A program made the translations under genes and the position numbers. The notes below the pieces were generated by a model. The model saw nothing but the letters and a program-made list of their open reading frames with translations, made no database searches and was not told where the DNA came from. Shown here piece by piece: positions 2,700 to 59,281 of a stretch of 64,000 nt of DNA. Source of the DNA: an uncultured Helicobacteraceae bacterium (GTDB lineage: Bacteria; Campylobacterota; Campylobacteria; Campylobacterales; SZUA-545); the NCBI GenBank assembly GCA_963542625.1, contig CAUTXO010000001.1, forward strand, positions 3,068 through 67,067. Direction: 5' to 3'. The number at the start of each line of letters is the position of its first letter. Position 1 is the first letter of the stretch.

Positions 2700-2905
2700 T
2701 ATTAGCAATGAGTGCTAGGATCTAGATGTTTGGATCTAAGCAAGCATAGGATCTACGCCAAATCCAAGATCCTTGCCGCGCCGAAGATCTTGCTAGGATC
2801 TGCACGTGCGTGCTAGTTCTAACCGCACGCCAAAGATCATAGGCGTTCAAGATCTAAGCGCGGGGGGCGGCAAAGCCTAAGATCTAAGCACCAAAGATCT
2901 ACCCG
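2700..2905. repeat. GATC-word-rich intergenic block (RAGATCY array)
   Basis: Lies between the convergent 3' ends of the OMP gene and moeA. Contains repeated aggatct/aagatct/tagatct words separated by gcgc/tagc-type words. Confidence 0.8.
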
Positions 2906-2913
2906 CTGCTAAA

Positions 2914-4216: not shown

Positions 4217-5164
4217 GTGCTGATAGACACCTACGGGCGGAGCGTGGATTACATACGGATCTCCGTCACAAGCCGCTGCAACTTTAAATGCGCCTACTGT
4301 ATGCCCTGCGCCGAAGACGCTAGTGAAGACGCCCTAAGTCTTGACGAGCTGTTTTTTGTGGCTAGTATTGCCGTGAAAAATGGGATCAAAAAAATACGCA
4401 TAACAGGTGGCGAGCCCTTGCTACGAAAGGATTTGCCGGAGTTCATTCAAAGGCTTCACACCGCCGCGCCGCACGTGGAAATTAACCTAACCACAAACGG
4501 CTATTTGTTGCAAGAATACGCCACCGCACTTGCGCGCGCGGGGCTAAAAAGGGTGAATGTCTCGCTAGATACGCTTGACCCTGTGCGCTTTAAGCTCATC
4601 ACAAAATACGACGCTTTGCAAAGGGTGCTTGGCGGCATTGGCGCGGCGGGGCAAGCGGGGCTAAAAATCAAGCTAAATACCGTCGTTATGGGCGGGATCA
4701 ACGACGATGAGATCATAAGCTTGCTTGAATTTGCCGGGCAAAAAAGGTTATTTTTACGCTTTATTGAATTTATGCCAAATGTTTATGCTAGCAGCAAGCT
4801 ACGAACCGTTACGGCAAAAGAAATTTTGCAGATAATCGGCGCGAAATATGAGTATAAAAAAATAGAAAAGGATCTTTTTGGCCCGGCTAGCTTATTTGAG
4901 CTAAAAAACGGGCAGGCGTTTGGGATAATCGAGCCGCACAAGGACGATTTTTGCAAGACGTGCAACCGCCTAAGGCTCACGGCAAACGGGAATTTTGTGC
5001 CTTGCCTTTTTTACGATGACTCGCTAAACGTGAAAAACGCCGCCGCGCAAAAGGACGCCAGCAAAATAGAGGCGATCTTAAAAGACGCTGTGATGAAAAA
5101 GCCTGAAAAAAACCTTTGGACGGAGCAGGTGTCAAACAGAGCCTTTTGGGAGACGGGCGGGTAG
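4217..5164 (+). CDS. moaA: GTP 3',8-cyclase MoaA (radical SAM)
   Basis: SVTSRCNFKCAYCMP CX3CX2C motif near the N-terminus, a C-terminal Cys cluster (FCKTCNRLRLTANG) and a terminal ETGG. GTG start. Confidence 0.9.
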   Translation: MLIDTYGRSVDYIRISVTSRCNFKCAYCMPCAEDASEDALSLDELFFVASIAVKNGIKKIRITGGEPLLRKDLPEFIQRLHTAAPHVEINLTTNGYLLQEYATALARAGLKRVNVSLDTLDPVRFKLITKYDALQRVLGGIGAAGQAGLKIKLNTVVMGGINDDEIISLLEFAGQKRLFLRFIEFMPNVYASSKLRTVTAKEILQIIGAKYEYKKIEKDLFGPASLFELKNGQAFGIIEPHKDDFCKTCNRLRLTANGNFVPCLFYDDSLNVKNAAAQKDASKIEAILKDAVMKKPEKNLWTEQVSNRAFWETGG

Positions 5165-5596
5165 GCGCTTAAGATCTTGCGCCTTGAGATGGTTTAGATC
5201 CTAGCACAAAGAACTAGCGCAAGATCTTGCGCTTTGCGTGGCTTGGATCTTAGCCAGGGCTCAAAATCTTGCGCCTTGAAAGGGCTTGGTCCTAGCGCGC
5301 CAAAGATCCAGCACCAAGCACTAGCGCTAGATCTAACTCAAGATCTAGTAAAGATCCAAAGCTTGCACGGCTTTACCTTTGGCGCGCTTAAGATCTAGCC
5401 CCTAAGATCTTGCCAAGCCGCGCCTAAGTTTGCGCCTAGATCTAGGATCCGTCAAGATCTAAGGCTGCCTAAGATCTTAGATCTAAGACAAAAGAGCCAA
5501 AAATCTAGCACTAAGCACTAGCGCTAGATCTCGCCAAGATCCACAGCACCAGCTTAGATCTAGCCCTAAGATCTTGCTAACTAGCCCCAAAGCCAG
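5165..5596. repeat. GATC-word-rich intergenic block (RAGATCY array)
   Basis: About 19 GATC in 431 nt by hand count, against about 1.7 expected. Includes the perfect 16-nt palindrome gcgcaagatcttgcgc at 5217-5232. Lies between convergent gene ends. Confidence 0.85.
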
Positions 5597-6514
5597 CTAA
5601 TCTGCTTGCTCGTTTAACATTTTGTATTTATCGCAACCCTGCCCAAAGCCCAAATCACAAGCCTTGCTGAATAACTCCTTTGCCGTTTGCTTGTCTTTTT
5701 TGACGCCTTGCCCGTTGTAGTATAAAGCCCCTAAATTAAAGCAAGCGCCGCCATATCCTAGCTCGCAAGCCTTTTGCCAAAACTCGGCTGCCTTTTTGTA
5801 ATTCTGTTTTACGCCATCTGTGCCGTGATAATATGAATGCCCCAATACGTAGCAAGCCTCGCCGTGCCCCAGCTCGCAAGCTTTTTCAAACAGCGCAGCC
5901 GCTTTTTTTAGATCTTGCCCCACGCCCCTTCCACGCTTATAGAAAGCCCCTAAATTAAAGCAGCTCTCGCCATCGCCTAATTCGCAGGCTTTTTCAAACA
6001 GTGCGGCTGCTTTTTCGTCGCTTTGCTCCACGCCCAGCCCATCTCTATACAAAATGCCTAAATTGGCGCAAGCTATGCCATTCCCCATCTCGCAGGCTTT
6101 TTTGAAAAATTCGCGCGCTTTTTTATAGTCTTGCGTTACACCTTGTCCTTGCGCGCATAAAACCCCAAGATTATGGCAAGCGCCCATATCTCCCAGCTCG
6201 CAAGCCCTTTGCCAAAACTTGACCGCCTTTTGTAGATCTTGCGCTACGCCCTGTTCTCTTATGTATAAAACTCCCGCACTAAAGCAAGCTTCCCCATCGC
6301 CTAGCGCGCAAGCTTTTTCAAAGAGTTTAAGCGCTTTTTCGTCGCTTTGCTCCACGCCCAGCCCATTTGCATATAAAACTCCCAAATCAAAGCAAGCCGG
6401 GTAAAACCCAAGCGCACAAGCTTTTTCGTAAAACTTGGCATCTCTTTTGTGATCTTGCTTGCGTTTGATTTTATCTAAGCCAAGTGCTTTAAAAATTGCA
6501 CGTAAAAATCCCAT
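5597..6514 (-). CDS. Sel1-repeat, cysteine-rich protein (Hcp-like)
   Basis: About eight tandem repeats of roughly 36 aa of the form KAxxxFxKACELGxGxACxNLGxLYxxGxGVxQD with paired Cys. No obvious signal peptide. Confidence 0.85.
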   Translation of the reverse strand: MGFLRAIFKALGLDKIKRKQDHKRDAKFYEKACALGFYPACFDLGVLYANGLGVEQSDEKALKLFEKACALGDGEACFSAGVLYIREQGVAQDLQKAVKFWQRACELGDMGACHNLGVLCAQGQGVTQDYKKAREFFKKACEMGNGIACANLGILYRDGLGVEQSDEKAAALFEKACELGDGESCFNLGAFYKRGRGVGQDLKKAAALFEKACELGHGEACYVLGHSYYHGTDGVKQNYKKAAEFWQKACELGYGGACFNLGALYYNGQGVKKDKQTAKELFSKACDLGFGQGCDKYKMLNEQAD

Positions 6515-6691
6515 TTATTGCCCTTTAACTAACGCCCGCATTATGCCGCGCCTGCTCTAAAAGCTTGCGCCCAAAGGTTTCTTGCGCCAAGAACGGCAAA
6601 AGTTTTAAATCTGTAGCGCTTTTTCAGTTAGTGTTAATAAAATTATTGCAATAATCACGCCGTATAAAAATTATTATTTAAGGAAAAGCAA

Positions 6692-8422: not shown

Positions 8423-9195
8423 TGATAAGGGTTGGCATACACGGCGGATCCGGTAGGGTCGGCAATATGCTCATTGACGCGCTTAGTAGCGCCAAAGATC
8501 TTGCGCTTGCTTGCGTTTATGTGAGAAGCCGCGTCAATTTTACCGCCACGCAAGACGTTTTAGTCACAAACTCGCTAGAAGAATTTCTAAAGCATAGCGA
8601 CGTAGTCGTGGATTTTACAAGCCCAGGTGGCACGCAAAACCTTTTGGCAAAGGCAATTGAGTTTAAACCAACGTCGCTTGTTGTGGGCACGACGGGGCTT
8701 GGCGCAGATCTAATGGGCTTGCTAAATGAAGCGGCGCAAAAAATGCCCGTTTTTTACGCTACAAATATGTCCTTAGGCGTCGCGGTTTTAAACCGGCTTG
8801 TTTTTGAAGCGAGCAAGATCTTAAGGGATTTTGACGCCGAAATTTACGAAATGCACCACCGCCACAAAAAGGACGCGCCAAGCGGGACGGCGCTAACGCT
8901 TGCAAAAAGCGTAGCAGCAGCAAGGGGCTTAGATCTTGACGCCGTGCGAGTTAGCGCAAGGGACGGCATAACCGGCGAGCGCACAAAAGACGAGATAGCC
9001 GTTATGTCTTTTAGGGGCGGAGATATCGTCGGCGAGCACACCGTCGGGTTTTACTCAAGCGGCGAGTTTTTGCGGCTTTCACACACCGCGACCGATAGAA
9101 AAACCTTTGCACTTGGCGCGCTAAAAGCGGCGGCGTGGCTAAGCAGCAAAAAAAACGGGCTTTATTCAATCAAAGATCTGTTGCAATTTGAATAG
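8422..9195 (+). CDS. dapB: 4-hydroxy-tetrahydrodipicolinate reductase
   Basis: GxxGRVG N-terminus and the EMHHRHKKDAPSGTAL signature. TAATG overlap with trxB. Confidence 0.9.
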   Translation: MIRVGIHGGSGRVGNMLIDALSSAKDLALACVYVRSRVNFTATQDVLVTNSLEEFLKHSDVVVDFTSPGGTQNLLAKAIEFKPTSLVVGTTGLGADLMGLLNEAAQKMPVFYATNMSLGVAVLNRLVFEASKILRDFDAEIYEMHHRHKKDAPSGTALTLAKSVAAARGLDLDAVRVSARDGITGERTKDEIAVMSFRGGDIVGEHTVGFYSSGEFLRLSHTATDRKTFALGALKAAAWLSSKKNGLYSIKDLLQFE

Positions 9196-10531
9196 TTTTA
9201 ACGAAAAATGCGCCGTCGTCGGCGTGTTTAATGTTGAAAATTCCGCAAAAATCGCCTACCTAGCGCTTTACTCAATGCAGCACCGGGGGCAAGAAGCAGC
9301 GGGCATAAGCTCAAGCGACGGCAAAAAAATCAAAACCGTAAAAGGGCTTGGGCTTGTTTCGCAAGTTTTTACAAAAGAAGGGCTAGCTAGCCTAAGCGGC
9401 GCTTTATCCATTGGGCATAATCGGTATTCAACCGCTGGCGCAAACAGCATTGAAGACGCGCAGCCCCTTTGCGCGACGCTAAATAGCGGAGATCTTGCGC
9501 TAGCGCACAACGGAAACCTAACAAACAGCCGCGCCCTAAGAGAAGCGCTCATCAAAAACGGGGCGGTTTTTCAGTCGCAAACCGACACAGAAAACATCAT
9601 TCACATCATCGCAAGAAGCAAGGAAGCGTCGCTAACAGAGCGCGTAAAAGAAGCACTTTTGCAAATAAAAGGCGCGTATTCGCTCGTGTTTTTGAGCGCG
9701 GATCTAATGATAGCTGCTAGGGATCCAAACGGCATACGGCCACTTTGCATAGGCGCGCTAGGGGGTGGCTTCATCGTTGCGAGTGAAACCTGCGCCTTTG
9801 ATTTAGTCGGCGCAAAATACCTAAGAGACATAGATCCAGCGGAGATGGTCGTGTTTGAAAGTGGGGGGCTTAGATCCATCAAGTTCGCCACGCCAAACGC
9901 AAAGCACTGTATTTTTGAGAGCGTTTATTTTGCAAGATCTGATAGCCTGCTGCGCGGCAAAACCGCCTACGAAACAAGAAAGCAAATGGGTAGAGAGCTA
10001 GCAAGGCAAGATGACCTAAAAGCCGACATCGTCGTGCCCGTCCCAGCTAGCGCAATCCCGCACGCCATAGGCTACGCCGAGCAAACGGGCATTCCGCTTG
10101 AGCTTGCCATCACCAAAAGCCACGCTGGGCGGAGCTTTATCCAACCGCTAAAAGAAGTCAGGGATCTTATGGTAAGGCAAAAGCTAAAGCCTATCCGTGA
10201 GCTCATTTACGGCAAGATCTTGGCGCTAATAGACGACTCAATCGTGCGCGGCACCACAGGCAAGCAAATAATTAGCTTGCTTTTTGAAGCCGGCGCAAAG
10301 GAAGTGCATATGCGCGTGGCGTCGCCGCCTGTTTGCTACCCGTGCTTTTACGGCATTGACACGCCAAGCAAGAGTGAGCTCATCGTCGCGCGGCTTGGCA
10401 TTGAAAAAACGGCGCAAGCGTTAGGGGCAAACTCGCTTAAATTCCTAAGCCTTAGCGCGCTAAAAAAAAGCGTTGAAGATAGCGGCAACTTTTGCTGTGC
10501 GTGCTTTGACGGAAAGTATTTTCACAAATGA
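9188..10531 (+). CDS. purF: Amidophosphoribosyltransferase
   Basis: Short propeptide followed by CAVVGVF (Ntn Cys), a PRPP-binding loop (LIDDSIVRGTT) and C-terminal Cys ligands. TTG start overlapping the dapB end. Confidence 0.9.
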   Translation: MNSFNEKCAVVGVFNVENSAKIAYLALYSMQHRGQEAAGISSSDGKKIKTVKGLGLVSQVFTKEGLASLSGALSIGHNRYSTAGANSIEDAQPLCATLNSGDLALAHNGNLTNSRALREALIKNGAVFQSQTDTENIIHIIARSKEASLTERVKEALLQIKGAYSLVFLSADLMIAARDPNGIRPLCIGALGGGFIVASETCAFDLVGAKYLRDIDPAEMVVFESGGLRSIKFATPNAKHCIFESVYFARSDSLLRGKTAYETRKQMGRELARQDDLKADIVVPVPASAIPHAIGYAEQTGIPLELAITKSHAGRSFIQPLKEVRDLMVRQKLKPIRELIYGKILALIDDSIVRGTTGKQIISLLFEAGAKEVHMRVASPPVCYPCFYGIDTPSKSELIVARLGIEKTAQALGANSLKFLSLSALKKSVEDSGNFCCACFDGKYFHK

Positions 10532-15675: not shown

Positions 15676-16003
15676 GCTAGGATCTTAGGCGCTAGCACAC
15701 GCCCCGCTCAAACAAAACGCGCGTAAATTTTTAGCACCCCGCAAATTTTGCGCGCGTGTTTATTGGAGCTAAGCAAGTTCTTGCGTAAATCCAAGCAGGC
15801 AAACTCATACGAAGGGCGAGCTTAGATCTAAAACCGCGCGCACAAAAACGCAATGCAAAATCCTAAGCCGTTAAAGCATTTGTATCCGTGCTTGGCACGC
15901 GTAAGATCTTTTAAAAATCGCCTTTATATATGGATCTAAACCTAGCGGCACACCGGCTAAATTCAGCTTTTTAAGCAAAATTGCCCTACACTTTGAATAA
16001 TAT

Positions 16004-16018
16004 TTTCAAATTCAAAGG
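16004..16018. promoter_or_regulatory. Possible Fur-box-like AT-rich dyad upstream of the TonB-dependent receptor
   Basis: tgaataatattttca is partly palindromic (10/15 positions), resembles the TGATAATnATTATCA-type consensus only loosely, and ends 10 nt before the start codon. Confidence 0.2.
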
Positions 16019-16027
16019 ATCAAAAAA

Positions 16028-18950: not shown

Positions 18951-19307
18951 CTAAAAAACCAGCATTACGCGCAAAGCTAGCCTTGCCAAAATACGACCGG
19001 CGTTTATCTGCGCGCCGAAGTTTTGTTGCAAAAGGCACCATTAGTCTTTAACTTGCCTAGCATTTGCGACTTTGTGCTTTACGCTATGAGCTGTTAAAAA
19101 TTTTGATAGCTCAGTGCTGTATATGTTTGTCGCTTCAAACAAAACAAGCGCATTACTATCTAAGCGCCTAAGCAAGGCAAATAAGCCTGCTTGATTAAAA
19201 CTAACTTTAAAATATTCGTTAGTCTCATAAACTGTAATGTCAAGTTTAGTCTTTGAGACGTCAATTCCGTAATGCATAAAAAGTCCTTTTTTGCGCGGCG
19301 TTTGCAA
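18951..19307 (-). pseudogene. IS110-family transposase, N-terminal remnant (stop-interrupted, 3' part missing)
   Basis: HYGIDVSKTKLDITV...LFEATNIYSTELSKFL...KVANARQVKD matches the DEDD N-terminal domain of IS110 transposases. After the TAA the same frame continues with ...QINAGRILARLA (resembling KIDARILARLA) and then ends. About 120 aa are left of the more than 300 aa expected. Confidence 0.6.
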
Positions 19308-20446: not shown

Positions 20447-22725
20447 TTGTTTTGCGCGATGAGCTTTGGAAGGTCTAAGATTAGCGCAATTTCCGTCCCC
20501 CCAAGCATCGCCACGCTGTCTATGACCCCTCTTTCATTAAAGTATTTGCCAAGCGGTTTTATCACCATTTGCGCTTCACCTAAAAGCTCGTCGGTGGCGA
20601 TTGCAAAGACGTTTTCTTTGTGCCTGACGACCACCGCGTTTCTGCGCGTGGCTTGGCTTTTCAAGCCAAAAAAGCTCTCAAGATCTATCACTTTTAGCTC
20701 ATTGCCAGGCGTGGCATTTGCGCCGCTTGCGCCGTTTGCCGCACCCGCGCTAAGATCTGCGCCAGAGCAAATCTGCACGCCCGCTAAGATCTCATCGCTA
20801 ATTGCAACGCCTGCTTGGATCTTTGCGCCGCCTAAGATCTTACCGCTAGCGCCACCGCCACCGCCGCTAGCCCCCGCGCCACCTGTGAGCGGGATCCAAA
20901 CGCTAGATATTAGCCCGTCCGCGCCGCTAAGATCTTGCGCGCTGCTAAGCCCCGTGCCCTGGCGGCTAAGATCTTGCCTACCCGCCGCGCCCAAGCCGCC
21001 CAAACTCCACCGGCTAGGATCCGCCGCAAAACTTCCCAGATCTTCAAGCGCCACGCACTCGCTAATGCTCTCAAGCCCTATGGCAAAAAGCACGCCGCCT
21101 TGCCTAAAGAAAAAGCCCTGCGTGATGGCAAGCGACGGCGGCAAAAAGATGTCAAACCTTGTGCCCGCGCCCTTTTTTGTTTGAATGCTAATGCTGCCGC
21201 GTAGGTCGTCGATGTTTTTTTTCACCACGTCAAGCCCCACGCCGCGCCCTGAAATATTACTAACCGTGCGCGCGGTGCTAAGGCCTGGCAAAAACATCAG
21301 GTTCAAAAGCTCGCTTTGGCTTAGCTTAGCACCCGGCAAAATCAGCCCACGCGCGGCGCTTGCTTGGCGGATCCGCTCTAAATCTATGCCCGCGCCGTCG
21401 TCTTCTACGCGAATATGCACGTAGCCGTTTTCGTATTCGGCGCTAAGTAGCAAGCGCGCGGTCTTGTTTTTGCCAAGCTGCTCCCTAACCTGCGGCGGCT
21501 CTATGGCGTGGTCAAGAGAGTTTCTAATTAAGTGCATAAGCGGGTCTTTTAAATGCCCGGCGATGGTTTTGTCAATCTGCGTTTTTGTGCCGGCTAGCTC
21601 CAGAAAAACGGACTTGCCAAGCGCGCTTGAGAGCTCATAAACGCTGCGTTTAAAGCGCTCGAAAATCTCGCCGATTGGTATCATACGCGTTTGCAAAGAA
21701 AGCTCGTGCAACTCCTTAAAATGCATTGATAGCTTGAAGATCTTCTCCTTTAGCTCGCTAGGAGCGCTCGCGCTTAGGCTGTTTTGCACGGAGGCGTTTA
21801 GGATTGCCATTTCTTGCATTAGGCTGATGATTTTGTCGATTTTTTCAACTTCTATGCGCGCAAACTTCTTAAATTCTTGCGGCTCAGCTGGCTGCTCGCT
21901 TGCAAAAACGCCCTGCGCCGCAAGGGTTTTTAGTAAATGCGGCCTTGTTTTATAAAGCTCCCCAGCGGCTGCTTTGCTTATCCCGCACGCAAAAACATCG
22001 ACGCTAAAAAACTCGCCAAAGCGCGCCAAATAATCCTTTGCCTCTTGCACCTGCGCGGCTTGGATATTAAACTCAAAGCCAAGCAAAAGCGGGTCTTGGA
22101 AACTCTCAAGCGGGGCAAGATCTGTGGTGTCCGTAAAAAACTCGCCGAGCTTAAAATTTGCGTCAAGATCTTGCAAAAAGCCCGCTAAATCAAAGCCCGC
22201 TAGGCTTTTTTGCGCGCGCATAGATACGTGCAAGGTGTCCTTACAAGCCAGCGCGCCTGTGATAGATCTAGCGCCTGAATTAACCCACGCGTTAGATCCA
22301 GCGCCTGCGCTAAGATCTACGCCCCAGCCCGCATTTAGATCTTTGCCAGCGCTAGGATCCACGCCCGCGCCCGCTCCCGCGCCCAAAATACCAAAGGCGC
22401 CTTGCTGTGAAAGGCTTTGCGCGGTTTCATCGCTTTGGTCTAGCATTAGCGCTAGCTTGTCACTCTCTTGCAAAATGGCGTTTAGATCTGCTTGCGTTAG
22501 CGCCGCGCGCGATTTTAAATCGCCAATGCGCTGCTCGAGCTCGTGCGCGGCTGTGGCAAGATCTTTAAAGCCCACCATAAGCGCGTTGCCCTTTATCGTG
22601 TGAATGACGCGGAATATTAGGTCTAAAAGCTCTTGTTTTGGAAGACTGTTATCCAAAATGCTTTGCTCTATTTGCTCTAGGCCCTGCGCCGCTTCTTGCC
22701 TAAACTCCTGCCCTACGCTAAGCAA
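20443..22725 (-). CDS. cheA: Chemotaxis histidine kinase CheA (no C-terminal receiver domain; two low-complexity insertions)
   Basis: Hpt site IHTIKGNALMVGF, HATPase motifs (HLIRNSLDHAIE, DDGAGID, GRGVGLDVV) and a C-terminal CheW-like domain. TTG start. Confidence 0.9.
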   Translation of the reverse strand: MLSVGQEFRQEAAQGLEQIEQSILDNSLPKQELLDLIFRVIHTIKGNALMVGFKDLATAAHELEQRIGDLKSRAALTQADLNAILQESDKLALMLDQSDETAQSLSQQGAFGILGAGAGAGVDPSAGKDLNAGWGVDLSAGAGSNAWVNSGARSITGALACKDTLHVSMRAQKSLAGFDLAGFLQDLDANFKLGEFFTDTTDLAPLESFQDPLLLGFEFNIQAAQVQEAKDYLARFGEFFSVDVFACGISKAAAGELYKTRPHLLKTLAAQGVFASEQPAEPQEFKKFARIEVEKIDKIISLMQEMAILNASVQNSLSASAPSELKEKIFKLSMHFKELHELSLQTRMIPIGEIFERFKRSVYELSSALGKSVFLELAGTKTQIDKTIAGHLKDPLMHLIRNSLDHAIEPPQVREQLGKNKTARLLLSAEYENGYVHIRVEDDGAGIDLERIRQASAARGLILPGAKLSQSELLNLMFLPGLSTARTVSNISGRGVGLDVVKKNIDDLRGSISIQTKKGAGTRFDIFLPPSLAITQGFFFRQGGVLFAIGLESISECVALEDLGSFAADPSRWSLGGLGAAGRQDLSRQGTGLSSAQDLSGADGLISSVWIPLTGGAGASGGGGGASGKILGGAKIQAGVAISDEILAGVQICSGADLSAGAANGASGANATPGNELKVIDLESFFGLKSQATRRNAVVVRHKENVFAIATDELLGEAQMVIKPLGKYFNERGVIDSVAMLGGTEIALILDLPKLIAQNK

Positions 22726-23240
22726 ATGCCTATCCCAAGCCCTGAAAATACGCGCTTGATTTGCTCGCTAGCGCCTTCTATCACTAGGGTTTTTGACTGC
22801 TTTTGTAAAAATAAATGCAAAGAAATTAAGAATAAGATCTTGCTTGTTTGCTCACCTGGCGCCGTGATAGCGGGCGTTGCCGCCGGATCTGCGCTTGGAT
22901 CTAAGCTGGCGTTTGGATCTCTGGCGGTGCCAAGATCTAAGGTAGCGCTAGGATCTACGCCGGCGCTTAGATCTTCGCCAACACTTAGATCTGCGCTAGG
23001 ATCCGCACTCACGCTTAGATCTTCGCCAGCATTTGGATCCGCGCCTAGATCCGCACCGCTGCCTAAGATCCCCGCCGCGCCGCCAAAGATTTTTGAAACA
23101 TCAACTTTCACAGTCGCGGTGAGCTCAAAAGCCTGCGCGGCAATCTCACGCGCTAGACCCCCTAGCCCAGCTGCGCTTAGATCTAGCGGCAAATCAAGCC
23201 TTGTGTGGTCTTGCATAATGCTAATCATCGCCGCGCACAA
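22713..23240 (-). CDS. Hypothetical protein, possibly a STAS-like fold split by a D/L/S/A/G-rich insertion
   Basis: The ends resemble a STAS domain (VKVDVSKIFGGAAGI ... KTLVIEGASEQIKRVFSGLGI). The middle 80 aa or so are encoded by RAGATCY repeats. It overlaps the clpB stop and the cheA start. The assignment is weak. Confidence 0.35.
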   Translation of the reverse strand: MCAAMISIMQDHTRLDLPLDLSAAGLGGLAREIAAQAFELTATVKVDVSKIFGGAAGILGSGADLGADPNAGEDLSVSADPSADLSVGEDLSAGVDPSATLDLGTARDPNASLDPSADPAATPAITAPGEQTSKILFLISLHLFLQKQSKTLVIEGASEQIKRVFSGLGIGICLA

Positions 23241-26493: not shown

Positions 26494-26524
26494 GATCTAA
26501 CGCGCCAAACGTCAAGATCCTGCG

Positions 26525-26754
26525 CCAAAGATCCACGCGCTAAAATCCAAAATCCGTGCAACGCCAGCGTTAAGATCCAAGACTTAGATCTTAGATCCAA
26601 GCCATAAGATCTAGCGCACCAAAGATCCACGCGCTAAAATCCAAAATCCGTGCAACGCCAGCGTTAAGATCCGCCGCTTAAATCTTAGATCTACACCCCA
26701 AGATCTAGCACGCCAAAGATCCGCACTTAAAACCAAAACCTAGCGCTAAGATCC
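26525..26754. repeat. Tandem repeat with 94-bp period, 2 perfect plus 1 degenerate copy
   Basis: The 54-nt core ccaaagatccacgcgctaaaatccaaaatccgtgcaacgccagcgttaagatcc is identical at 26525-26578 and 26619-26672. A degenerate, shorter third copy lies at 26713-26754. Confidence 0.9.
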
Positions 26755-26767
26755 ACACGCCCGCGCG

Positions 26768-48995: not shown

Positions 48996-49330
48996 TTCTT
49001 TCCTTTAAAAACCGTTATTCTACAAAAACAAGGCAAAAGTAAGCCCGCGCGGGTTTGGTAGCGCTTAGCGCGGCTAGATCTTGCGCGCTAGATCCACGCT
49101 AGATCCGTAACAGATCTTAGCGCCCGCGCGTAACGCGTTGGCTTAGATCTAAGCGCCAAGCGTGCGGATTGGCACTGGCAAGATCTATGCTAGATCTAGC
49201 ACGCGCAAGATCTTACCCCTACGCGATGCTTTTTCTTTTTTTAATTATGGTAGGGGTAGATCTTGACTAGGATTTGCGCTAGATCTAAGCGCTTGTGTTT
49301 TTTCTTTTTTAAATTAGGGGGAAAGGGATG

Positions 49331-49672
49331 GTAGATCTTAACTAAGATCTGTTAGCTAGATCTAGAGTTAGATCTTGACTAAGATCTTTTTTTAGGGGGA
49401 AGGGGGCTTGAATTGCTGCGTCACGGCTCCCGTTCCCCTTTGAACCCCCAGCCCCCGACGACGCTTTTTAAAGGGGCATAGCTACGCTATGCAAATTAGA
49501 AAAAATAAACTGCATAGCCTTTGGCTATGCCCCTTAAGAAGCGTGCTGTGGTTTAGGGGTTTGGGGGAAGTGGGTGGCTCGCAACTTGACCCCCTTTCCC
49601 CCAAAAGAAAAAAAATACAAGATCTAATAGGCGCCTTAGAGCTAGCTAACAGATCTTAGTCAAGATCTTAGC
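49331..49672. repeat. Imperfect palindrome of about 340 bp centred near 49502
   Basis: Arm pairs: 49343-49386 with 49621-49668; 49394-49410 (agggggaagggggcttg) with 49582-49602 (caacttgaccccctttccccc); 49472-49482 (aggggcatagc) with 49524-49534 (gctatgcccct), perfect 11 bp; 49486-49493 (gctatgca) with 49511-49518 (tgcatagc), perfect 8 bp. Confidence 0.85.
49429..49456 (-). other. Canonical G-quadruplex motif (G3+N1-7 x4) on the minus strand
   Basis: The + strand reads ccc gtt cccc tttgaa ccccc ag ccccc. The mirror arm at 49556-49577 (ggggtttgggggaagtgggtgg) is a near-motif on the + strand. Confidence 0.5.
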
Positions 49673-49832
49673 CCCCAAGATCTTAGCCTTAGAAAAAACA
49701 TAAGATCTAAACGGTGCTTTAGATCTGGCTAACAGATCTTAGGCAAGATCTTAAGTCAAAGTGGGTGGCGTAAAGATCCACGCTTGGTGGTGGCGGGCAC
49801 GATTCGTGCAAGATCTCACACCGTAGATCCGG

Positions 49833-51419: not shown

Positions 51420-51694
51420 AGCATTAAACCAGCAAGCAGCCTATCGAGCGTCGTTAAAGCCAAAATGACAATCACGGGGGAGAGATCTATGCCAGAAATC
51501 ACCGTCGGCAAAAGCCGCCTAAACCTTGCAAACACAGGTTCGGTTAGGCGCAAAAGGATTTGCATAACGGGGTTAAAAGTATCCACCCTAGCCCAAGAAA
51601 GCACCGCCGCAACAATCACAACCCAAATGTAAAGCCAAATGATTTGATGAAGCAAAAACGCCAAAGCGTCTAAGATTGCGTATAAAAAATTCAT
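51416..51694 (-). CDS. yggT: YggT-family membrane protein
   Basis: 92 aa with two TM helices. ...LSWARVDTFNPVMQILLRLTEPVFARFRRLLP...IDLSPV matches the YggT pattern. Confidence 0.75.
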   Translation of the reverse strand: MNFLYAILDALAFLLHQIIWLYIWVVIVAAVLSWARVDTFNPVMQILLRLTEPVFARFRRLLPTVISGIDLSPVIVILALTTLDRLLAGLML

Positions 51695-51734
51695 ACCGTC
51701 TCCAAAAACACAAGTTTAGCCAAGCAGGCTTAAA

Positions 51735-51880
51735 CCAGCGCGGATCTTAGCTTGGATCTTGCACACCGTGAGTGACTTTACGCAATGAGACTAGCGTTAA
51801 GATCTGTCAAGATCTTACGCCCAAGATCCACAGCAAACGGCGCTAAAGATCCTAGCCCAAGATCTAGCGCCTAAGATCTT
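51735..51880. repeat. GATC-word-rich intergenic block containing a dispersed repeat copy
   Basis: 51811-51878 (gatcttacgcccaagatccacagcaaacggcgctaaagatcctagcccaagatctagcgcctaagatc) is closely related to 58799-58868. Confidence 0.8.
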
Positions 51881-51881
51881 C

Positions 51882-58238: not shown

Positions 58239-58277
58239 AGTATTTTTAAGATAAAGTGGATAAAATTCCGCTTTCTT

Positions 58278-58354
58278 GGCTAGATAGCTCAGCTGGCTAG
58301 AGCGGTGCTCTCATAAGGCACAGGTCGGGAGTTCGAGTCTCCCTCTAGCTACCA
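58278..58354 (+). tRNA. tRNA with anticodon CAT (elongator Met, or Ile2 if lysidine-modified)
   Basis: A 77-nt cloverleaf folded by hand: acceptor ggctaga/tctagct, D arm gctc-agctggctag-gagc, anticodon loop ctCATaa, T arm gggag-ttcgagt-ctccc, and an encoded CCA. Confidence 0.85.
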
Positions 58355-58553
58355 ATCTTGTTTTTTCGTTGTAGCAGTCGCGCCGCACACCGCGCACCGT
58401 GCTCCTTTAGAGCGCTTTTGAGTTTAGCCGTTTAGTTTAGCTTTTTTGGCTTGGCGCTAAACCTATGCACGCGCTAGTTTGTTGCCACCGCCAAGATCTT
58501 AGCAAACGCCGCACAAGAGCCACATTTGCAAAGTGATTTATTTTAAAAACCCC

Positions 58554-58581
58554 TTGACAAACACTGAAGTTTTGTATAAAA
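58554..58581 (+). promoter_or_regulatory. Putative sigma70-type promoter for tRNA-Asn
   Basis: TTGACA at 58554-58559 and tgtATAAAA/TATAAA at 58573-58581 (spacer 15-16 nt), about 18 nt upstream of the tRNA 5' end. Confidence 0.35.
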
Positions 58582-58598
58582 TCGCGTTTTCTTTGCAT

Positions 58599-58673
58599 TC
58601 CGGATTAGCTCAGTGGTAGAGTAGATGGCTGTTAACCATTTGGTCGCAGGTTCGAATCCTGCATCCGGAGCCA
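58599..58673 (+). tRNA. tRNA-Asn (anticodon GTT)
   Basis: A 75-nt cloverleaf: acceptor tccggat/atccgga, D arm agctcagtggtagagt, anticodon loop ctGTTaa, T arm gcagg-ttcgaat-cctgc, and an encoded CCA. Confidence 0.9.
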
Positions 58674-58724
58674 CTTAATCACCCTTACTTCTTGCGCTTT
58701 CAACTCCTGATAAGCCAGCACAAA

Positions 58725-58875
58725 TGTTAGGATCTTTCAAGGCTCCAGCCACACCCCCGCACCGGCTACAAACCGCCAAGATCTTAAGCACTTACGCGCC
58801 AAAGATCCATAGCAAACGGCCCTAAGATCCTACGCCCAAGATCCGTTCAGATCTTACGCCTAAGATCCACCCCGC
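58725..58875. repeat. GATC-word-rich block immediately 3' of tRNA-Asn, containing a dispersed repeat copy
   Basis: 58799-58868 (ccaaagatccatagcaaacggccctaagatcctacgcccaagatccgttcagatcttacgcctaagatcc) is related to 51811-51878. Confidence 0.8.
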
Positions 58876-58927
58876 CAAGCCAAGTGCGCCTAAAAGCTTA
58901 TCTCGTCAAGATACGCGCGCACTTCAT

Positions 58928-59137
58928 CTATGGCCCATCTGCTAGCCACTCTGGAGAGAGCACCTTAATGCAAGGCAGGTAGTAGTAAATAAGCGGCTTA
59001 ATCTCCATCGCGCTTGTAAAATTCACTTCAAGTTCCAAAGATCCGTCGCCATCTTGCCCGCTGATGCGCTTTGCGGCCTGCGCTGAAAATACTTCGTAAC
59101 AGATAGATCTAAAAGCGGCTGTAAAAATTATGCCCAT
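58928..59137 (-). pseudogene. Possible C-terminal fragment of a WYL/WCX-type transcriptional regulator
   Basis: The 69-aa ORF ending ...DGSLELEVNFTSAMEIKPLIYYYLPCIKVLSPEWLA resembles the C-terminal extension of WYL-domain regulators. No HTH or WYL part is present and only 144 nt remain before the divergent gene. Confidence 0.3.
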
Positions 59138-59281
59138 ATTTTTAGAGCTTCAAGAATGTTCCAGGGCTAAACCCGCACTTTTTTACGCAAATACACTCAA
59201 AAGGTATGTAATTTTGGCGCTCTTTTTTGTATTTATGTCGCGTAACATTTCTGCAACACACCAACACACCAAGGAGATCTT

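Follow-up and report, generated by a model that had tools for sequence, protein, structure and literature searches.

The DNA described here is a stretch of 64,000 nucleotides (nt) from an uncultured Helicobacteraceae bacterium (contig CAUTXO010000001.1); the whole stretch that was analysed is called the window, and its best protein matches place it in the Campylobacterota. The subject is the six-base word RGATCY (R, purine; Y, pyrimidine), most often seen as AGATCT, which is grossly over-represented throughout the window and which is packed into dense blocks, or arrays, in some of the spacers downstream of genes. One of these blocks fills the spacer at positions 5165-5596. We conclude that this is a word like HIP1 (highly iterated palindrome) of the cyanobacteria, found in a new phylum and with a new array form. 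The reading that we favour, and to which we give about an even chance, is that the word, which resembles HIP1 and the RAATTY word of Campylobacter jejuni, is under a drive that raises its frequency across the genome and lets it saturate DNA at gene 3' ends where the sequence is unconstrained, and that the spacer itself has no sequence-specific job.

The 432-nt spacer is non-coding, with 8-13 stop codons per frame in all frames, and moaA and a Sel1-repeat gene converge on it. It contains 19 GATC, all 19 of which are within RGATCY and 13 within AGATCT, and RGATCY sites take up 26% of its bases; GCGC (13 copies) and CTAG (14 copies) words lie between them. The Poisson probability of at least 19 GATC is 3e-14 at a rate of 1/256 per base, and it is 1.6e-9 at the raised GATC rate of the window itself. 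An earlier reading made from the sequence without database searches (the sequence-only reading) had estimated about 19 GATC in a 431-nt spacer, nearly all of them in an AGATC context, and these counts bear it out. It had also reported a perfect palindrome, gcgcaagatcttgcgc, at 5217-5232, which is indeed present and whose full extent is a perfect 18-nt palindrome, AGCGCAAGATCTTGCGCT, at 5216-5233, centred on AGATCT. This palindrome forms a perfect 12-nt inverted repeat with positions 5171-5182.

The excess is not confined to the spacer. Among all hexamers of the window AGATCT ranks first, with 233 copies versus 7.3 +/- 2.7 in dinucleotide-preserving shuffles, and it is 13.7-fold over the mononucleotide expectation; the check proposed in the sequence-only reading, AGATCT frequency versus expectation, thus places the word far above what composition would give. 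Between 162 and 164 of the 233 copies, or about 70%, are in coding sequence. When synonymous codons are shuffled within each gene, so that the protein sequence and the codon usage are both preserved, 37.5 +/- 5.5 coding copies are expected versus 164 observed (z=23), and AGATCT is the most enriched of the 4096 hexamers. RGATCY occurs in 49 of the 50 genes and is spread evenly along gene length; the window has 3.6 AGATCT and 6.5 RGATCY per kb. GATC enrichment at gene 3' ends, as the sequence-only reading had it, is therefore only part of the picture: the blocks are all 3' of genes, but the excess of the word is found in coding sequence as well.

These controls bear directly on a trivial explanation, namely that the pattern reflects codon usage, dinucleotide bias, local duplication or a mobile element. 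The preferences for the codons GAT, CTT, CTA, ATC and AAG do favour the word. However, the excess survives both types of shuffling, the word is in nearly every gene, three independent assemblies of the species have it, as do two related species, and the blocks are not copies of each other. We regard such an artefact as refuted and its probability as negligible.

The word has a precise definition. In a table of NGATCN contexts, RGATCY accounts for 419 of the 474 GATC, and AGATCT, AGATCC plus GGATCT, and GGATCC are in the proportion 233:168:18, as independent half-sites with about 75% A would give. Neither TGATCA nor CGATCG occurs in the window, although 12-14 copies are expected. Most of the one-base variants outside the R and Y positions are depleted 1.5-4-fold in coding sequence relative to the synonymous shuffle; AGCTCT, AGATCA and ACATCT are close to expectation, and AGAGCT is enriched. 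The preferred extended form, S-S-Y-W-AGATCT-W-R-S-S, is alike in coding and intergenic copies. The flank combinations AAGATCTT, TAGATCTA and AAGATCTA number 58, 23 and 79, respectively, which fits independence of the two flanks and therefore indicates no selection for the pairing of a hairpin stem.

The pressure for the word is also visible in the encoded proteins. In permissive contexts the word is used in 58% of the x-Asp-Leu positions, 54% of the [KQE]-Ile-[FLSYCW] positions and 24% of the Arg-Ser positions. The dipeptide DL occurs 207 times versus 117 expected, and the tripeptide QDL (CAA-GAT-CTN) 31 times versus 4.1 expected. Hence the protein sequences themselves are distorted toward the word.

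Some other short words display unusual frequencies as well. In comparison with the synonymous-shuffle expectation, CATG (0.01, one copy) and GTAC (0.03, three copies in 64 kb) are nearly missing, and GGCC (0.18), GAAC (0.25), CCTC (0.28) and TCGA (0.32) are depleted; GCGC (1007 copies, 1.67-fold) and CGCG (647 copies) are abundant. Avoidance of restriction sites, in which the target of a resident enzyme is depleted, is ruled out for RGATCY, because RGATCY is enriched while CATG, GTAC, GGCC, GAAC and TCGA, all classic targets of restriction, are nearly erased; RGATCY is therefore not under restriction pressure, and it behaves as the target of an orphan methylase with a reader would. An open reading frame (ORF) of 88 aa on the minus strand (19041-19307) matches IS110-family transposases at their N-terminus (PF01548, E=1e-5, a score under the gathering threshold) and is probably a remnant. 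The surrounding 580 nt or so are AT-rich and contain no GATC, as would be expected if foreign DNA lacked the word.

The presence of the word among related bacteria follows a graded pattern. Three other assemblies of the same species (L070, L075 and L076), with 96.5-97.7% DNA identity to the window, agree with it in word statistics and in their blocks; a public metagenome-assembled genome (MAG) named 'Helicobacteraceae bacterium' (GCA_052173315.1) represents the species and encodes a valyl-tRNA synthetase (ValRS) 99% identical to that of the window. The ratio of observed to expected AGATCT is 13.7-17.6 in this species (window and L075), 8.3 in the relative L077 (ValRS 68% identical), 4.9-6.0 in the relative L071/L078 (ValRS 64-65%), 2.5 in L080 and about 2 in L081 and L082. 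In 61 unrelated bacterial loci the median is 0.57 and the maximum 3.9. The enriched relatives, L077 and L071/L078, have about 37% GC, no avoidance of CATG and GTAC and no excess of GCGC, and GC content reaches 47% in this species. About 75 kb from these two relatives contain no dense GATC block, and the orthologous spacers in the relatives are short, with 62 nt from moaA to the next gene and 43 nt from flgH to yggT. Since the relatives have the word excess without the blocks, the word system predates the species, and the blocks, the increase in GC and the additional spacer DNA belong to this species alone.

The spacer at 5165-5596 illustrates this difference. Relative L071 lacks both the Sel1-repeat gene and the block, and its moaA is followed directly by trx, which encodes thioredoxin (L071:6446-6509, compared with 5165-6691 of the window). 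The Sel1-repeat gene and the block are together an insertion relative to L071. A single mismatch separates the 432-nt spacer of the window from that of L070, against a local background of only about 1% and a mosaic pattern of divergence.

Existing sites are conserved both between strains and between species. At third codon positions, 3 of 165 bases inside RGATCY differ between strains (1.8%), versus 347 of 5596 outside (6.2%; odds ratio 0.28, p=0.019). Between species, at positions where both proteins permit the word, it is present in both in 8 cases, in one only in 2+2 and in neither in 8 (odds ratio 16, p=0.023); of the 31 window sites in those orthologues, 8 are at the same position in the relative, whereas random placement would give 0.08. 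Raw gains and losses of sites between strains, which are unpolarised, are balanced. The number of differences from L070 and L075 ranges between 0 and 28 in 200-nt stretches of the window, and this strongly mosaic pattern suggests frequent homologous recombination in this population.

Searches for additional members of the clade were less productive. A MoaA search of genome contigs returned only distant MoaA proteins (at most 43% identity), and in a scan of metagenome contigs for three close sites this clade was absent among the matches listed, which were mostly single chance matches. Two metagenome contigs unrelated to this clade, Ga0126339_10004765 (L151:6143-6762 and 8535-9308) and Ga0126337_10000134 (L179:942-1550 and 6069-6686), have 400-770-nt arrays of GATC words, TTGAAGATCTTTGCAAGATC, with 30-51 GATC in each array; these contigs are about 36% GC.

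The spacer is one of several dense blocks (Table 1). The sequence-only reading had listed further regions with the same architecture. Among them the spacers 2611-2913, 26494-26767, 48996-49832 and 51420-51881 are indeed dense, with 19-47 GATC per kb, but those that contain the listed regions 58725-58875 and 15676-15900, namely 58239-59281 and 15676-16027, are sparser, at 10.5 and 14.2 GATC per kb, respectively. There are two blocks beyond that list, one at 22860-23090 and one just past the window end (L075:14456-14994, 37 GATC in 540 nt). Whether the blocks are confined to one place had been raised as a check, and they are instead dispersed over 66 kb at unrelated loci. Every block is downstream of some gene 3' end; the three divergent spacers, i.e., those with promoters, contain no GATC. 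The blocks are limited to DNA on which coding and promoters place no constraint.

Table 1. Positions of the word layer, the dense blocks and the genes and repeats discussed with them (window coordinates).
Feature	Position	Strand	Remarks
Word layer, entire window	1-64000		AGATCT 233; RGATCY 419 of 474 GATC; 49 of 50 genes
Block, convergent spacer (197-aa hypothetical gene / moeA)	2700-2913		whole spacer 2611-2913 has 10 GATC
moaA (radical SAM / Mob_synth_C)	4217-5164	+	stop codon adjoins spacer 5165-5596
Internal duplication pair	5299-5345 and 5496-5541	+	87-92% identical
Sel1-repeat protein gene	5597-6514	-	stop codon adjoins other end of spacer 5165-5596
Block 3' of clpB	22860-23090		degenerate 18/36/48-nt tandem units with RGATCY
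Block, convergent thiE / nucleotidyl-transferase gene	26494-26767		13 GATC; 94-nt tandem duplication 26525-26722, 88% identity
First block, 837-nt spacer 3' of SLT gene	49060-49400		13 AGATCT
Second block, same 837-nt spacer 3' of SLT gene	49610-49832		83-nt internal duplication (49610-49753); 27-nt insertion with AAGATCT in L075 and L076
Block between flgH and yggT	51735-51881		L077 orthologous spacer is 43 nt
Block 3' of tRNA-Asn	58725-58880		most divergent and indel-rich stretch between strains

Several features of the surrounding DNA deserve mention. A 22-kb island for surface-glycan biosynthesis (26768-48995) encodes asparagine synthase-like amidotransferases, a sulfotransferase, an adenosine phosphosulfate (APS) kinase, methyltransferases, a glycosyltransferase, an epimerase and WbqC. 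GATC blocks lie on either side of it (26494-26767 and 48996-49832), and its internal word density equals that of the rest of the window. Within the 837-nt spacer, a distinct element at 49200-49620 contains a T-rich motif three times (ctttttcttttttaa..tta..gg), as well as a long inverted repeat of G/C runs (gggggaagggggcttgaattgctgcg ... cgcaacttgaccccctttccccc) that encloses a second, inner one (aaaggggcatagc / gctatgcccctt); a small RNA and a miniature inverted-repeat transposable element are both possible identities. About 130 nt adjoining the cheA start, on the side of the 22860-23090 block, are AT-rich and nearly free of the word. Two ORFs cross GATC blocks, one at 22713-23240 on the minus strand (175 aa) and one at L075:14460-15077 on the plus strand (205 aa). 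Neither has a Pfam family, and both consist of low-complexity DLS/DPS or KDLRS/PKIQ repeats; they are probably spurious genes produced by the arrays, although the second is annotated as a gene in a public collection. The 54.7-kb contig of a public MAG ends inside the block at 48996-49832 (L075:1-162, equivalent to about 49700-49832 of the window), and thus the arrays appear to break short-read assemblies.

The internal structure of the blocks provides clues to their growth. They have no homology to each other beyond words of at most about 10 nt, and all of the longer matches are local duplications, including the 94-nt tandem and 83-nt copies listed in Table 1 and the 36-47-nt pair that begins at 5299 and 5496, which is evidence that the spacer grew by local duplication. 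Between strains, indels fall in the blocks at 49.7, 58.8 and 61.3 kb, and the 58.8-kb block is among the most substitution-divergent. These indels carry whole words, such as the 27-nt insertion with AAGATCT and a 15-nt TAGATCTTAGTCACA. GATC-to-GATC spacing has peaks at 7, 11-14 and 18 nt with no fixed period, and densities reach one site per 15 nt, with 45-68 sites per kb in the arrays. The hexamers that build the blocks are also those over-represented in coding sequence (rho 0.26-0.28), and this is also true without the GATC-containing hexamers. The plus strand of the blocks is A+C-rich regardless of the orientation of the neighbouring genes, and this skew is that of unconstrained DNA under strand-biased mutation. 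One of the options in the sequence-only reading was a repeat-expansion process; it accounts for the growth of the blocks, with their local duplications and word-carrying indels, but not for the excess in coding sequence.

Another of its options, an element that acts in structure or termination like the repetitive extragenic palindromic (REP) sequences and bacterial interspersed mosaic elements (BIME), fares worse. Here the palindromic units would form RNA hairpins that stabilise or terminate transcripts and would be spread by a transposase of the REP-associated tyrosine transposase (RAYT) type. The blocks are extragenic and at 3' ends, they contain perfect palindromes and inverted repeats, and the predicted RNA fold of the spacer is far stronger than that of shuffles (z = -6.6 and -3.9), all as this explanation would have it. 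However, no unit longer than about 10 nt is common to the blocks, 70% of the word copies are intragenic, and the AGATCT flanks are independent half-sites that do not covary. Scans of the blocks with Rfam and for tRNAs gave no match inside them, and a scan for terminators found terminator-like sites at chance level; the strong folding is what self-complementary words would be expected to give. We consider a REP-like origin very improbable.

A third possibility, which takes in the binding array named among the options of the sequence-only reading, is that the blocks are functional arrays, i.e., high-avidity platforms for a protein that binds RGATCY, perhaps when methylated, and that they serve as transcription roadblocks or insulators where genes converge, as nucleoid organisers or as hot spots for uptake and recombination beside variable islands. 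The site density, the strict location at 3' ends and between convergent genes, the blocks on both sides of the glycan island and the one adjoining tRNA-Asn would all be in keeping with such a role, as would the trend toward lower non-coding divergence inside the sites (2.0% versus 3.5%). However, relatives that share the word excess have no blocks, and any function of the blocks would therefore not be ancestral. Furthermore, few stretches evolve as fast or have as many indels between strains as the blocks do, their spacing is irregular and their architecture is not conserved, and block length and content vary at every locus. This explanation we find unlikely.

The word could also be a by-product of repair. 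In Escherichia coli, Dcm and the very-short-patch (VSP) endonuclease Vsr act together at CCWGG, where T:G mismatches are repaired. By this explanation a C5-cytosine methylase acting at RGATCY and a Vsr-like endonuclease would convert T:G to C:G. The near-miss words within the blocks are mainly RAATCY and RGATTY, most of the strain differences in the core are transitions at the C:G pair of GATC (a hand count), GCGC is enriched, and GC content has risen from about 37% to 47% in this species, all of which would agree with VSP-type repair. In coding sequence, however, AGATTT and AAATCT are at 0.54-0.63 of expectation and so are less depleted than AGACCT, CGATCT and AGATCG (0.23-0.29); the depletion pattern is therefore not specific to VSP repair. 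In addition, C-to-T is the commonest mutation anyway, and the RGATCY methylases in the cited literature are N6-adenine enzymes (PMC9723563, PMC10287943). Such a by-product would seem improbable.

Returning to the interpretation in which the word is driven up genome-wide, the following mechanism is proposed. The word would be defined by a protein with the RGATCY specificity of BstYI or M.Dor12838I, most likely an orphan DNA methyltransferase resident in the genome and partnered by a reader of methylated sites. Recognition would be linked to a directional force, which would favour alleles that create a site and disfavour those that destroy one. Candidates for this force are the preferential uptake or recombination of self-marked DNA, as with RAATTY/CtsM in C. 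jejuni and as proposed for HIP1, and a repair bias directed by methylation (Elhai's ratchet). Selection acting directly on some chromosomal function may be an alternative driver. In neutral DNA, the ratchet and slippage between the many short repeats would presumably bring the sites near to close-packing, with one site per 15-25 nt. That a protein, and specifically a methylase, stands behind the word is something that we purely infer. RGATCY m6A methyltransferases such as M.Dor12838I do exist, enzymes of the BstYI/XhoII type share the specificity, and full methylation of RGATCY is known from a Nitratiruptor strain and from Acinetobacter baumannii A118 (PMC9723563, PMC10287943). HIP1 has been tied to methyltransferases and to a methylation-dependent enhancement of transformation (PMC4390886; bioRxiv 10.1101/2024.09.10.611283; 10.64898/2026.06.24.733823).

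A number of observations weigh against this interpretation. No gene for a DNA methyltransferase, a restriction enzyme, Vsr or competence is present within the 64-kb window. An uptake drive would be expected to have diminishing returns at 3.6-6.5 sites per kb and gives no obvious reason to expect arrays of 45-68 sites per kb, and the coding sites are irregularly spaced, being no more even than random (CV, coefficient of variation, 1.16). A Vsr-type bias predicts a selective loss of RGATTY and RAATCY; instead, most of the one-off variants are depleted. To our knowledge, Helicobacter pylori and C. jejuni, both members of the Campylobacterota, have no MutS1/MutL, which weakens a mismatch-repair ratchet of the Elhai type. 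The drive itself does not explain why this species alone has hundreds of extra bases in its spacers. Finally, both conservation tests are based on small samples (p of about 0.02 each), and in non-coding DNA the difference between strains is not significant, with 7 of 357 bases differing inside the sites (2.0%) and 87 of 2459 outside (3.5%).

The most attractive functional reading would be a methylation-marked signal for self-recognition or uptake, which had been one of the options of the sequence-only reading. In its favour are the exact RGATCY set with its independent half-sites, which is a known methyltransferase and restriction-enzyme specificity, the restriction of the word to a clade, its presence in nearly every gene and its absence from the IS110 remnant. 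A stronger version would be that RGATCY is the methylated self-recognition signal of this clade for uptake or recombination, and that the 3'-end arrays are functional, high-avidity hot spots for these processes, some of them bracketing variable islands. We treat this version as possible, though rather unlikely. If it were true, RAATTY discrimination and HIP1 would be two cases of one general mechanism.

These findings have several implications. The role of HIP1 has been a puzzle for some 30 years, with all work on it confined to cyanobacteria, and the word described here provides an independent second case. It is found in a phylum that already has proven methylation-dependent DNA uptake, and its GATC core has a textbook methylase specificity. 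The graded series of species (2-fold, 5-8-fold and 14-18-fold) would allow uptake drive, repair ratchet and selection to be compared through gene gain. The force is strong, as it alters protein sequence (QDL is 7.5-fold over expectation) and builds new DNA. In practical terms, the arrays appear to break metagenome assemblies and probably yield spurious gene calls, and word density could serve to distinguish self DNA from recently acquired DNA. Our search of the literature found no earlier account of AGATCT or RGATCY hyperabundance in the Campylobacterota.

How does the word compare with known systems? The DNA uptake sequences (DUS) of Neisseria and the uptake signal sequences (USS) of the Pasteurellaceae are non-palindromic, oriented words of 9-12 nt that occur about once per kb and do not form arrays. 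Like them, the word described here is short, hyperabundant in genes and spacers, clade-specific and enriched in 3' spacers, and it shapes peptides; DUS and USS also occur sometimes as inverted pairs. Identity with them is ruled out, however, because the core here is palindromic, 6-8 nt long and present at 3.6 (AGATCT) to 6.5 (RGATCY) per kb. The REP/BIME elements of enterobacteria have a conserved, imperfectly palindromic unit of 20-40 nt and are exclusively extragenic. The blocks resemble them in being extragenic, palindrome-rich clusters at gene 3' ends, but differ in having no 20-40-nt unit and no stem covariation, and genes hold the majority of the word copies; no RAYT was seen. Identity with REP/BIME is therefore also ruled out, the shared words being at most about 10 nt, 162 of the 233 copies coding and the flanks independent.

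The RAATTY/CtsM system of C. jejuni, in which DNA uptake depends on methylation (as summarised in bioRxiv 10.1101/2024.09.10.611283 and PMC10046745), is closer. Both words are very frequent, degenerate 6-bp palindromes of the form R-NNNN-Y in the same phylum and belong to a known methyltransferase specificity class. A difference is that the frequency of RAATTY in a genome with 30% GC is largely compositional, whereas the excess here is 14-32-fold over composition.

HIP1 (GCGATCGC) provides the closest comparison. In cyanobacteria it is 15-300-fold over expectation, with a density close to 1 per kb (Elhai 2015, PMC4390886; Xu, Lawrence & Durand 2018, PMC5861425), and its sites persist between genomes (Xu et al., PMC5861425). 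The word described here is not HIP1 itself, since CGATCG is absent from the window and the host is a member of the Campylobacterota, and so it is an analogue only. Where HIP1 is a GC-rich octamer, the word here is the degenerate 6-bp RGATCY; it occurs 3-6 times more densely (3.6-6.5 per kb versus about 1 per kb), and it forms close-packed 3'-end arrays of 45-68 sites per kb, which the sections consulted in the HIP1 papers do not mention. In other respects the two are much alike. Both are short palindromes with a GATC core, far over expectation (14-32-fold here), abundant in coding and non-coding DNA beyond codon usage and with most one-off variants depleted; both are conserved between genomes, limited to a clade and of a methyltransferase-type specificity, and uptake and repair-ratchet hypotheses apply to both. 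Three traits of a HIP-type word, namely gross over-representation, a coding excess beyond codon usage and protein sequence, and conserved sites (the last from small samples), are thus found in this bacterium.

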